Shown here piece by piece: positions 20,178 through 21,395 of a DNA stretch of 64,000 nucleotides (the first letter of the stretch is position 1; every line of letters starts with the position of its first letter). Below the pieces are notes generated by a model. It saw nothing but the letters and a program-made list of their open reading frames with translations. It was not told the origin of the DNA and did not search any database. This DNA comes from Mycobacterium phage prophiT36-1. Made by a program: the position numbers and the translations under genes. The stretch lies in sequence record OQ417966.1. One strand, written 5' to 3'.

Positions 20178-20411
20178 TCAGGGGCCGAGCGGTACTTGGT
20201 TGATGGTTCCCTTGACGTTGTCGCGGTCTTGGCCTTCCCACGAGTTGGCGTACTGCTCAATTTGTGCCTTGGCTCCATCGAGGGACCTGTGGGCGGTGAG
20301 GATGCTTTCGCCGTTCCTGGGATGGATGACGGTGGCAACGTAGATCTGTTCTGGCGGTCGCATCATCGCGCCCATGTCGGTGAATGCGCCACCCGATGTC
20401 ATTTCCTGCAT
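20178..20411 (-). CDS. hypothetical 77-aa protein, third gene of the minus-strand operon
   Basis: ATG 3 nt after the upstream stop; protein-like sequence (YVATVIHPRNGESILTAHRSLDGAKAQIEQY). Confidence 0.5.
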   Translation of the reverse strand: MQEMTSGGAFTDMGAMMRPPEQIYVATVIHPRNGESILTAHRSLDGAKAQIEQYANSWEGQDRDNVKGTINQVPLGP

Positions 20412-20414
20412 TGC

Positions 20415-21008
20415 TCAGCCCTTCGGCGGGTAGGGGTCGTTGCCGGGCGCGATGGTGTCCTTGGCTCGGATCTTGCCCTGCTTGTCGTGGATGTTGAGTT
20501 CACCGCCGCCGCTGTTGCCGAGGATGGTGCGCGCGCGGTCGACGGCTTCAGCCTGGGTTTCGAAGTGACCGCTAGATCGGGGAGAGCCGGGCTTCTGGAT
20601 GTCCCAACCGCCGCGGTCGGCGTTGGGTACAACGTGGCGGGCTTCTGGCTTCTTGTTGGTCACGGTGTGTTCCTCCTGGTGGCTGGAATGGATGGTGACG
20701 TTAGTAGCGACCGGGCCACTACGGGGGTGGTTTTCGAAGTATTCGACTAGCGCGGCCCTTACCAATCCGGATTCTGAGCTGACCTCGCCGTCGTCGACGC
20801 GGCGTTGCATCTCGGACCGGATCGATGCCGGTAGCCGTACGGGCAATGCGGGGGTCTTGCCGGATAAGCGCGTGGTGCCTTTGGTGGGTCTTCCGATGGG
20901 GAGAAGTGCGGCATCGGCGCCGAACTCGACGGGCCCCTTTACGGAGTATCGGCCGTCTTCGATGGCTCGGCTCATTTCTTCGTAGTCGCGCGGGTCTCGT
21001 TTTGCCAT
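20415..21008 (-). CDS. RHH (CopG/BrnA-like) antitoxin-like domain fused in-frame to a DUF2188 domain; internal SD+GTG could also yield a stand-alone 82-aa DUF2188 product
   Basis: N-terminal half: ALPVRLPASIRSEMQRRVDDGEVSSESGLVRAALVEYF (ribbon-helix-helix). C-terminal half: HVVPNADRGGWDIQKPGSPRSSGHFETQAEAVDRARTILGNSGGGELNIHDKQGKIRAKDTIAPGNDPYPP (DUF2188 signature). SD aaaggaga upstream of ATG 21008; internal ccaggaggaacacaccGTG. Confidence 0.65.
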   Translation of the reverse strand: MAKRDPRDYEEMSRAIEDGRYSVKGPVEFGADAALLPIGRPTKGTTRLSGKTPALPVRLPASIRSEMQRRVDDGEVSSESGLVRAALVEYFENHPRSGPVATNVTIHSSHQEEHTVTNKKPEARHVVPNADRGGWDIQKPGSPRSSGHFETQAEAVDRARTILGNSGGGELNIHDKQGKIRAKDTIAPGNDPYPPKG

Positions 21009-21010
21009 GC

Positions 21011-21349
21011 TCAGTTCTCCTTTCGGTCGTATTGCGGGCCGATATAGGGCCTTTGGGGTGATACCTCGTTGCGGAGGTTGATGATTCCTCCCGTGATTTC
21101 GAAGGCTTCGCGAGCAACACGTGGGGTCAGGACCATTGCATGGAAGATGACCCAGGCCTCTTGATCCTCGTTTTCGGCGGCAACTTCGATCCATGGTTGT
21201 TTGTTGATGTTGCCGATGAACATGTAGGTGTCGGCGTCGGGGTGGGTGGTTGTGATGGCGTAGCGCAGGAGTGGGTGGGTGATGACGTTGCGGATCTCGT
21301 CGCCGGTGATGCTGTGTTGCCATCCGGTGGGGATGATCTCGATCCGCAT
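21011..21349 (-). CDS. BrnT-like (DUF497/COG2929-like) putative toxin, first gene of the operon
   Basis: MRIEIIPTGW...HPDADTYMFIGNINKQPWIEVAAENEDQEAWVIFHAMVLTPRVAREA follows the BrnT pattern (M.I.WD... DPD.. ERFLTIG ... GRLLVVVHT..d.IRIISAR.A...E); toxin-then-RHH-antitoxin gene order as in brnTA. Confidence 0.5.
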   Translation of the reverse strand: MRIEIIPTGWQHSITGDEIRNVITHPLLRYAITTTHPDADTYMFIGNINKQPWIEVAAENEDQEAWVIFHAMVLTPRVAREAFEITGGIINLRNEVSPQRPYIGPQYDRKEN

Positions 21350-21353
21350 ACCG

Positions 21354-21395
21354 AAAAGTGTATTACACATCTGACATAAAGTGCAATACACTTTT
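21354..21395. promoter_or_regulatory. Palindromic operator-like site AAAAGTGTATTACAC-N12-GTGCAATACACTTTT just upstream of the minus-strand toxin-antitoxin-like operon
   Basis: 14/15-bp inverted repeat read directly in the 5' region of the operon. Confidence 0.5.

Follow-up and report, generated by a model that had tools for sequence, protein, structure and literature searches.

Toxin-antitoxin modules with a BrnT-type toxin are known from several bacteria. In BrnT/BrnA of Brucella abortus (PDB 3U97; Salmonella homologue 7VD7), the toxin gene comes first, and the antitoxin combines a toxin-binding N-terminus with a C-terminal ribbon-helix-helix (RHH) domain; autoregulation is likely, and natural BrnT-BrnA fusions are known (PMC11980606). 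The DUF4258 modules are listed antitoxin first in the same paper. In Mycobacterium tuberculosis, the RelS-RelI pair (Rv2663-Rv2664) comprises a BrnT-like toxin of the RelE superfamily encoded upstream of its antitoxin (PMC13284704), with H10, near the N-terminus, and H64, on a late strand, being essential in RelS; RelI, for its part, is an HTH protein that has no known relatives, and no repeat of operator type was detected at that locus.

The locus analysed in the present study, in a 64,000-nucleotide stretch of DNA referred to below as the window, shares with BrnT/BrnA the toxin-first order, the antitoxin architecture (here predicted) and the likely autoregulation, and with RelS-RelI the mycobacterial setting and a BrnT-like RelE-superfamily toxin encoded upstream. 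At the same time, it differs from RelS-RelI, beside which its toxin is set by description, in having an RHH antitoxin and a very clear putative operator, and from BrnA in the extra DUF2188 domain of its antitoxin. We assign a probability of about 0.7 to the reading that this cassette is a type II toxin-antitoxin system of a BrnT/BrnA-like family, mostly of Mycobacteriales, which represses itself and carries DUF2188 as an accessory. This reading is built on the open reading frames (ORFs), the fusion, the predicted fold, the synteny, the operator conservation and the selection described below.

Cassette limits, promoter and terminator

A check of the sequence recovered the three minus-strand ORFs of the preliminary description, together with the promoter palindrome and the hairpin. 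The ORF listing gives g43 (21349..21011, 112 aa), g42 (21008..20415, 197 aa) and g41 (20411..20178, 77 aa), all on the minus strand, with gaps of 2 nt between g43 and g42 and of 3 nt between g42 and g41. These calls are identical to genes 43, 42 and 41 of GenBank OQ417964.1 (Mycobacterium phage prophiT48-1), in which gene 43 is already labelled “BrnT-like toxin” and gene 42 “antitoxin”. The block had been taken for the only substantial one on this strand outside the immunity region, but genes 85-87 (59748-61220) have the same orientation. By blastn, homology to the sister prophages prophiT46-2 and prophiT49-1 ends at 20081 and restarts at 21507 (prophiT49-1) or 21763 (prophiT46-2), and in prophiT46-2 the g44 homologue directly follows the g40 homologue. 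The region is a discrete cargo cassette of about 1.4 kb (20082..21506) in the MabL prophage prophiT48-1, inserted relative to the sister MabL prophages and having its own promoter and terminator, and its prophage-borne nature was rightly recognised at the outset. No Rfam family was detected within 19800-21900.

The promoter palindrome has 15-nt arms at 21354-21368 and 21381-21395, complementary at 14 of 15 positions and separated by a 12-nt spacer, and it ends 4 nt before the ATG of g43. Two inverted 15-bp boxes can be recognised in it, namely the distal putative operator box 1 (21379..21393), reading exactly AAGTGTATTGCACTT on the minus strand, and the promoter-proximal putative operator box 2 (21356..21370), which overlaps a likely -10 element, TACACT (21357-21362, minus strand). 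This hexamer fits the mycobacterial TANNNT pattern and lies only 7 nt before the ATG, and such a position suggests a leaderless mRNA. When up to three mismatches were allowed, the consensus box was matched six times in the window, where chance predicts 0.48; the two promoter boxes, counted on either strand, account for four of these matches. At least one box was found upstream in 27 of 31 genome loci and in none of 577 control windows, in the 15 genome loci for which both boxes were scored the promoter-proximal one ends at a distance of 5-7 nt from the start codon, and the boxes are kept in Mycobacterium, Gordonia, Nocardia and Williamsia as well as in their phages. The palindromic operator postulated ahead of the operon thus has its counterpart in two inverted boxes conserved across genera, which are probably an autoregulatory operator. 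The RHH domain of g42 (residues ~51-95) would presumably bind the two boxes, which are about two helical turns apart; since they lie over the -10 element of a promoter probably giving a leaderless mRNA, the complex would repress its own operon.

At the other end of the unit, between the convergent genes 40 and 41, there is an intrinsic-terminator-like hairpin (20113..20154, minus strand), in which 20113-20126 pairs with 20141-20154 in a perfect 14-bp stem. As minus-strand RNA it has a folding energy of -40.8 kcal/mol (z = -4.1), and GGGUUUUG comes after it, in agreement with the hairpin terminator said to close the unit.

The putative toxin family and its RHH antitoxins

The 112-aa protein g43 (21011..21349, minus strand) had been described as following the BrnT/DUF497 pattern, which is not borne out by sequence comparison. 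No match was obtained in Pfam, NCBIfam or PADLOC, or in the PDB by sequence or profile, and the match in PHROGs was to a family of unknown function only. BrnT_toxin (PF04365) was not matched by g43 at E ≤ 1 or by any of 22 family members at E ≤ 10, it was absent also among 20 distant relatives, and hhalign of the g43-family profile against the BrnT-like toxin from locus L083 gave no link. DUF4258 (PF14076), a family of RelE-superfamily toxins, is the sole Pfam family touched by family members or distant relatives (E 6e-4 to 0.09), with best scores of 17-21 bits in distant relatives only and E 0.09 in three of the 22 members; all of these matches fall below the 25-bit gathering score, which no g43-family sequence examined reached, and this, together with the toxin-first gene order, sets g43 apart from the DUF4258 modules.

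The BrnT assignment holds at the level of the predicted fold. An earlier AF2 model from a 22-sequence alignment (pLDDT 57), whose Foldseek matches were meaningless, was replaced by a model from a 120-sequence alignment (pLDDT 93.6), according to which g43 is predicted to adopt the BrnT/RelE fold of the BECR/RelE superfamily, and the closest structural relatives of this model are BrnT proteins. The g43 family, with at least 223 members mostly from Mycobacteriales, can be regarded on this basis as putative BrnT-fold toxins that lack a Pfam model; they are longer than BrnT and have a conserved C-terminal tail (PQRP). g43 retains every invariant polar residue of the family and almost all of those that are nearly invariant, the conserved set including E18, E55, H12, R20, H70 and R100, and its dN/dS is 0.29. 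The nearly invariant H12 and H70 may be placed beside H10 and H64 of RelS, this being a positional analogy only and not a superposition. As a small protein of RelE/BECR fold, g43 would presumably cleave RNA and thereby arrest translation. The cytotoxic “BrnT-like” protein Waterfoul gp86 (PMC9339283) was not among the g43 homologues found, and no g43-family toxin was found in the plasmids of PLSDB.

In every one of the 46 genome loci examined, and likewise in each phage locus, the toxin gene is directly followed by that of its cognate antitoxin in the same orientation, and in the window the two are tightly coupled across the 2-nt gap. In the phages Mask (gp96) and Sejanus, toxin and antitoxin are fused as one ORF, a likeness to the natural BrnT-BrnA fusions, and one chromosomal copy has HigB/HTH and PIN/HTH pairs as its neighbours.

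The 197-aa antitoxin g42 (20415..21008, minus strand) consists of an N-terminal segment, an RHH domain, a linker and DUF2188; it is covered over its full length by phrog_22338 (PHROGs, E 1.6e-22) and has an overall dN/dS of 0.13. Its residues 1-95 align with the RHH-only antitoxins of M. conspicuum and phage Dori. Residues 1-50 (20859..21008, minus strand) bear the motif DYEEM...GRPTKG, kept in all partner antitoxins, and would presumably cover the g43 toxin, this neutralising role being assigned because of the BrnA architecture (PMC11980606). Residues 51-95 (20724..20858, minus strand) are the predicted RHH DNA-binding domain: phrog_4003, “DNA binding protein”, matched residues 36-95 (E 2e-21), and Pfam RHH_1 scored above its cutoff at the aligned position in the homologues HannahD gp36, Ruthy gp35, DumpsterDude gp37 and Hedwig gp38, which puts the RHH C-terminal to the presumed toxin-binding segment. 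In Pfam, g42 itself gave no RHH, BrnA or CopG match, and the g43/g42 family differs from BrnT/BrnA in matching none of PF04365, BrnA_antitoxin (PF14384) and CopG_antitoxin (PF12441).

The pair could instead not be a working toxin-antitoxin system: g43 might have an RNase fold without being toxic, or act as a regulatory factor of the phage, and g42 would simply be a transcription factor. Such a reading would agree with the absence of a Pfam toxin match for g43, and orphan or inactive phage toxins do exist, LeBron gp82 being an example (PMC13148394), but the strict pairing of toxin and antitoxin in every locus, the invariant polar residues kept by g43, the purifying selection and the copy located among classical toxin-antitoxin pairs make it very improbable. 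The definition of the g43 family and its unusually well-conserved putative operator also help in annotating mycobacterial genomes and phages considered for M. abscessus therapy.

The third gene

The dN/dS of g41 (20178..20411, minus strand), calculated against a 75%-identical copy in the related locus L018, is 0.34, so this 77-aa, lineage-specific small protein is encoded by a real gene. Its homologues are confined to M. abscessus prophages, a search of 50,697 phage records returned only g41 itself, and the third genes of the Gordonia phages and of the metagenome relative are unrelated to it, so that the idea of a three-gene operon had to be given up as far as a conserved unit is concerned. 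Searches with g41 in Pfam, NCBIfam, PHROG and PADLOC gave chance-level matches only, with no SecB or other chaperone among them. A WXG100 assignment was considered and rejected (13.4 bits, E 0.093, against a cutoff of 27.3 bits).

Related arrangements are the toxin-antitoxin-chaperone (TAC) systems and the accessory or sensor domains of antitoxins such as Panacea/PanA and CapRel. The present locus resembles these in its three-gene layout, in the C-terminal extension of its antitoxin and in the association of one small domain with many unrelated toxins. By this analogy, g41 might be a dedicated partner, either chaperone or regulator, of the antitoxin extension, as in TAC. Downstream of the antitoxin gene there is indeed a small co-directional third gene in the M. 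abscessus prophages, in 8 of 8 Gordonia phage loci and in the related locus L022; eight chromosomal antitoxins carry a different C-terminal domain of ~65 aa, and a three-sequence search linked the third gene of L022 weakly to this domain (E 1.7e-6); and Hedwig gp37 weakly matches a peptide-binding chaperone family (E 0.006). However, the third genes come from unrelated families, one and the same third gene in Gordonia occurs both with and without DUF2188, and g41, which unlike the TAC partner is not SecB-like, showed no relation to the Gordonia third genes, to that of L022 or to the extra chromosomal domain (E 0.5). A dedicated partnership of this kind is accordingly given little credence, and g41 is probably a co-transcribed, lineage-specific passenger of the toxin-antitoxin pair.

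The DUF2188 extension of the antitoxin

Residues 125-197 of g42 (20418..20636, minus strand) comprise DUF2188 and a GNDPYPPKG tail. Pfam PF09954 matched residues 125-185 with 71.7 bits against a cutoff of 22, and both PADLOC models of PDC-S16 matched residues 122-197 (E 5.7e-23 and 6.6e-20). The PDC-S16 profile, of about 75 aa, has the size of a stand-alone DUF2188 protein, whereas the corresponding 75 C-terminal residues of g42 are the tail of an antitoxin. The fusion is genuine: g42 runs in frame and with no stop from the RHH-type part into DUF2188, as originally described, and the stop or frameshift whose occurrence in relatives had been named as the test was not encountered, relatives at 28-88% identity keeping one uninterrupted ORF. 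With 16 synonymous changes against one non-synonymous change relative to L018 (dN/dS 0.016), DUF2188 is under extreme purifying selection, and no other part of the operon is as strongly constrained.

Ahead of the domain, an in-frame AGGAGGA (20671-20677) is followed by GTG (V116, 20661-20663), the whole element occupying 20661..20677 on the minus strand. These signals are present as reported, but the suggestion that they yield a second product is weakened by their lack of conservation. The Shine-Dalgarno (SD) sequence is reduced to AGAAGGA in the 88%-identical relative L018, L022, at 52% identity, has no GTG, and the Gordonia phage fusions have no SD at this position. A conserved second start is ruled out by this comparison, and the element is probably a relic of gene fusion.

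Together with a g43-family toxin, the RHH-DUF2188 fusion was found in four Gordonia phages, in a second M. abscessus prophage and in one integrase-linked metagenome contig, and in none of the 46 genome loci. The proposed synteny search thus returned the toxin-RHH order throughout the genome loci but not the fused DUF2188. RHH-only antitoxins are the rule in the family, and DUF2188 is missing from half of the phage copies as well (Dori, Mao1, Hedwig, Ruthy, DumpsterDude, DirtyBoi, Mask and Sejanus). Because most family members are predicted to neutralise their toxin without it, DUF2188, here and in some other phage-linked copies, would be an accessory module outside the core mechanism, and this distinguishes the family from TAC, Panacea and CapRel.

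The same domain occurs on antitoxins of other toxin families. At locus L111, a canonical BrnT (42.1 bits) is paired with CopG_antitoxin-DUF2188, a true CopG/BrnA-DUF2188 fusion; elsewhere, HicA is paired with HicB-like/HTH-DUF2188, a sub-threshold BrnT-like toxin in a prophage with RHH-DUF2188, and a distant g43-family toxin with HTH-DUF2188. The 157-aa ORF upstream of the HTH-DUF2188 gene of locus L098 was considered as a toxin of Gp49/HigB type and dropped, as it had no match in Pfam. This attachment to antitoxins of several toxin families makes a shared role probable, and the recurrence suggests that DUF2188 probably gives the antitoxin a regulatory or sensing function.

At the same time, DUF2188 of the g42 subfamily usually occurs on its own, as a small protein (in 71 of 82 metagenome ORFs), and prophiGD13-2 also has a stand-alone copy; chance could therefore have brought two independent functions together in the fusion. 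The locus would then be an ordinary autoregulated toxin-antitoxin system stabilising the prophage or itself, and DUF2188 a hitch-hiker fused by stop loss, with a function of its own or adding oligomerisation or DNA contacts. The start codon found just before DUF2188 in many fusions, the strong SD still present in g42 and the prevalence of RHH-only antitoxins agree with this. Nevertheless, at least four toxin partners of such fusions are documented independently of one another (the g43 family, canonical BrnT, HicA and the distant g43-family toxin), and the reading frame is kept between relatives that share only 28-30% identity, so that accident alone is hard to credit. We regard this explanation as possible but less likely than the main reading.

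A role in defence may be considered beside prophage maintenance. The cassette might be a lysogen-expressed abortive-infection or exclusion system with DUF2188 as the trigger sensor, in which a product of a superinfecting phage that binds DUF2188, or the loss of DUF2188, would inactivate the antitoxin and free the RNase toxin. The link between DUF2188 and defence reportedly goes back to Burroughs and Aravind in 2020. The domain matches the PADLOC defence candidate PDC-S16, and the literature lists it among defence-associated domains, among the cargo of CapH/CapP regulators and, putatively, among Thoeris effectors (10.1101/2022.04.27.489752; 10.64898/2025.12.03.692087). Its extreme constraint, the location of the cassette in a variable cargo region and that of the module beside the integrase in Gordonia phages point in the same direction, as does the phage-linked occurrence of the fusion within the g43 family (two M. 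abscessus prophage lineages, the four Gordonia phages and the integrase-linked contig, against 0 of 46 genome loci), although “phage-only” is approximate here, the 46 loci having been counted irrespective of prophage status. Against it are the many phage copies without DUF2188 and the PDB searches with DUF2188, which gave no solved relative by sequence or profile. We consider this defence role rather unlikely as matters stand.

A still more speculative and doubtful generalisation is that DUF2188 serves as a portable sensor or switch. It would be added by phages and defence islands to antitoxins, at their DNA-binding end, across many families of RNase toxins (the g43 family, BrnT, HicA and probably HigB-like toxins), converting ordinary toxin-antitoxin pairs to infection-triggered abortive-infection systems, and the stand-alone PDC-S16 proteins of defence islands would act via the same ligand or partner. 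Should DUF2188 turn out to be irrelevant, what remains is an ordinary prophage toxin-antitoxin cassette.

Note that the preliminary description knew of no module with this composition. The pair is in fact named in GenBank and the full-length fusion is contained in phrog_22338, but no paper discussing DUF2188-tagged antitoxins was found in the literature. For a domain that is widespread and repeatedly found in defence islands, its fusion to antitoxins under extreme constraint offers a concrete genetic handle, as full-length and DUF2188-less antitoxins are comparable for neutralisation, repression, stability and phage exclusion. Additionally, a scan of IMG/VR for DUF2188 of the g42 subfamily yielded only four loci.

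The minus-strand cassette and its setting

Genes 43, 42 and 41 (g43, 21349..21011, 112 aa; g42, 21008..20415, 197 aa; g41, 20411..20178, 77 aa) correspond exactly to the three minus-strand ORFs of the preliminary description and are separated by only 2 nt (g43-g42) and 3 nt (g42-g41). The perfect hairpin proposed behind them was also found, at 20113-20154, with a 14-bp stem and, as minus-strand RNA, -40.8 kcal/mol (z -4.1), followed by GGGUUUUG. No Rfam family was detected in the cassette region. The cassette is predicted to be a BrnTA-like type II toxin-antitoxin system whose family Pfam does not yet cover. 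The earlier statement that no module of such composition had been described holds for the DUF2188-tagged antitoxin, which is new together with the recurrence of the tag across toxin families, but not for the kind of system, which is already known, nor for the pair, which had been annotated before. At 100% identity and unchanged coordinates, the stretch 19900-21800 matches Mycobacterium phage prophiT48-1, which is a prophage of M. abscessus T48 and belongs to Cluster MabL (PMC9934374); its GenBank record (OQ417964.1) labels gene 43 'BrnT-like toxin', gene 42 'antitoxin' and gene 41 hypothetical; the paper describing this prophage (PMC9934374) does not discuss genes 41-43.

In comparison with prophiT46-2 and prophiT49-1, two other MabL prophages, positions ~20082 to 21506 form an insertion that holds the promoter, all three genes and the hairpin; it falls in a variable stretch of cargo flanked by the serine recombinase gene on one side and the methylase and terminase genes on the other. 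Homology to both prophages, and to L018, which represents a further prophage lineage of M. abscessus, breaks at ~18652-18655, within the 3' end of gene 38 (18063-18677, serine recombinase/invertase), and the cargo beyond this break differs in each prophage (window 18500-18655 and 19831-21763); gene 38 may form one boundary of an exchangeable stretch of cargo. Divergent from the cassette promoter lies gene 44 (21649-23022, plus strand), whose 457-aa product starts with a hydrophobic segment, contains a long stretch rich in Gln and Pro and has no Pfam match; the 5' part of the gene is common to other MabL and MabC prophages, and genes annotated 'oxidoreductase' and 'LpqN lipoprotein' are located downstream. 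The cassette is not, as had been stated, the only minus-strand block outside the immunity region, since genes 85-87 (59748-61220, minus strand), including a 310-aa hypothetical protein, form another, flanked by lysin B and by the WXG100/polymorphic-toxin cassette close to the right end. Gene 17 (7729-8799, plus strand), annotated 'EccC-like translocase' amid the early recombination genes RecE, RecT and RusA, is an odd neighbour, considering that an ESX-secreted polymorphic toxin cassette lies at the opposite prophage end.

The predicted toxin and its cognate antitoxin

Searches with g43 gave no match in Pfam, NCBIfam or PADLOC and only chance-level matches in PDB, by sequence and by profile; its sole family match was an unannotated PHROG. 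Homologue searches brought together at least 223 family members, each about 95-115 aa long and none with a Pfam domain, mostly from Mycobacterium, Gordonia, Nocardia, Rhodococcus, Williamsia and their phages, and no copy was found in PLSDB plasmids. Among 1.84 billion representative proteins there were just 129 matches at E<=0.001, the weakest of which touch DUF4258 only below threshold. Built on an alignment of 22 sequences, an initial AF2 model of g43 reached a poor pLDDT of 57; the model from 120 sequences was confident (pLDDT 93.6, pTM 0.86), with the order strand, short helix, helix, four strands, helix. The BrnT C-terminal signature is present in 7vd7_A, the PDB chain of a Salmonella BrnT homologue. 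The BrnT/DUF497 pattern initially read in g43 therefore stands for the predicted fold, which is BrnT-like, but the sequence of g43 does not place it in PF04365. Residues E18 and E55 are invariant in the family, and H12, R20, R29, H70, Q99 and R100 nearly so; because g43 retains every one of them, it is compatible with an active enzyme. The two histidine positions, H12 and H70, resemble H10 and H64 of M. tuberculosis RelS, both essential there (PMC13284704), by positional analogy only.

Three sets of HMMs, for the toxin, for antitoxin residues ~1-97 (its N-terminal part with the RHH) and for DUF2188, were applied to 46 species-representative genome loci, 10 loci from IMG/VR and 10 additional loci from phages or contigs; in all of them the cognate antitoxin directly followed the toxin on the same strand. 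The M. conspicuum copy is neighboured by a HigB/HTH pair, a PIN/HTH pair and a transposase. At the corresponding position, the Gordonia homologues of g42 have Pfam RHH_1 matches that exceed the cutoff, and g42 itself matches phrog_4003 'DNA binding protein'. Its layout, a conserved N-terminal segment followed by the RHH, is that of BrnA, and the single 226-aa toxin-antitoxin ORF of phages Mask and Sejanus parallels known BrnT-BrnA fusions (PMC11980606). In Mask gene 96 (L009 130-810), and likewise in Sejanus gene 98, the fusion runs through a Thr/Asp-rich linker, and the annotation is 'BrnT-like toxin' only.

DUF2188 as a probable accessory antitoxin domain

The DUF2188 domain of g42 occupies residues 125-185 (PF09954, 71.7 bits), and its fusion to the RHH is real and recurrent. 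In-frame relatives at 28-88% identity comprise L018 (88%), metagenome contig P0025 (52%, with an adjoining integrase) and Gordonia phages HannahD, GEazy, Schnabeltier and MagicMan (28-30%); RHH_1 and DUF2188 each exceed the cutoff in HannahD and Schnabeltier, no stop or frameshift separates the two domains in any fusion relative, and a PHROGs family exists for the full-length fusion. The internal AGGAGGA-N7-GTG noted before DUF2188 is present in g42, but is not conserved: L018 has a weaker Shine-Dalgarno sequence, P0025 no longer has the GTG, and Gordonia phages have an ATG without a Shine-Dalgarno sequence. Pairwise dN/dS values between the window and L018 were 0.29 for g43, 0.17 for the g42 N-terminus with RHH, 0.18 for the linker, 0.016 for DUF2188 (16 synonymous changes, 1 non-synonymous) and 0.34 for g41.

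At the same time, DUF2188 was found in 0/46 genome loci, and the antitoxins of phages Dori, Hedwig, Ruthy, DumpsterDude, Mask and Sejanus also lack it, terminating exactly at the start of the g42 linker; because of these absences, the domain appears not to be essential to the system. Judged from these sequences, DUF2188 is an accessory domain. The DUF2188 subfamily found in g42, marked by a GNDPYPPKG tail, also occurs fused behind the DNA-binding domains of other antitoxins: HicA with HicB-like/HTH_28-DUF2188; a sub-threshold BrnT_toxin-like protein with RHH-DUF2188, in a prophage; a small protein with HTH-DUF2188, adjoining an integrase; canonical BrnT (42.1 bits) with CopG_antitoxin (40.8 bits)-DUF2188; HTH_3-DUF2188; and a distant 80-aa g43-family member with HTH-DUF2188. 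In 71/82 metagenome ORFs of this subfamily, DUF2188 stands alone. The g42 domain matches PADLOC defence candidate PDC-S16, and DUF2188 has been cited as defence-associated (10.1101/2022.04.27.489752; 10.64898/2025.12.03.692087); the papers found to mention DUF2188 yielded no link to antitoxins, and sequence comparison yielded no solved relative. Additionally, prophiGD13-2 carries an unannotated 80-aa stand-alone DUF2188 ORF (MSNSNDRYVVPNADGKSWDIKK...GNDPYPPKG; L004 2702-2944, plus strand; MW584212.1 about 18707-18949) opposite annotated genes 30 and 31, whose calls may be on the wrong strand.

Promoter boxes and modules after the antitoxin

The palindrome reported in the promoter was located with arms at 21354-21368 and 21381-21395 (14 of 15 complementary), and consists of a 15-bp box, AAGTGTATTGCACTT, itself a 5-5-5 palindrome, in two inverted copies. 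The gap between boxes is 6-8 bp, and their centres are therefore about 21-23 bp, or two helical turns, apart. Upstream of toxins that share only some 35% identity, the boxes are kept in Mycobacterium, Gordonia, Nocardia, Williamsia and their phages. The start codon could be placed in 31 genome loci: 27 of these carry one box or more and 15 carry both, the proximal box ending 5-7 nt from the start codon in these 15. No box occurs in any of 577 control windows. Within the window, they are restricted to the g43 promoter. The boxes probably form a well-defined operator. Mycobacterial promoters have a -10 element TANNNT, and leaderless mRNAs are frequent. Because the proximal box includes TACACT, 7 nt ahead of the g43 ATG, there is no Shine-Dalgarno sequence, and many family toxins start with GTG, we infer that the g43 transcript would be leaderless, with its -10 element covered by the antitoxin.

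Since g41 is under purifying selection, it is taken as a real gene; its homologues are limited to M. abscessus prophages. The three-gene operon did not hold up as a unit, as the identity of the third gene is not conserved. In Gordonia phages the third position is taken by another gene, conserved and coding for 75 aa, with or without DUF2188, and the third gene of P0025 (L022 951-1190) is different again, weakly related to a ~65-aa C-terminal domain (SFYVLWEQTFDGDEWQWVRFDK...GYRRVQIRHGRDEVVKEW). This domain, without a significant Pfam match, replaces DUF2188 in eight chromosomal family antitoxins (L054 3318-3800, and L056, L060, L062, L063, L064, L070 and L071). It is thus common for some small additional module to follow the antitoxin, but which module this is varies. 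The 75-aa gene lies just downstream in all Gordonia phages with a g43-type toxin-antitoxin (L007 2643-2879, Hedwig gp37; L002 3189-3416; L006 2856-3119; L008 3441-3668; L003 3162-3650), and Hedwig gp37 weakly matches the TY-Chap3 peptide-binding chaperone family (E 0.006).
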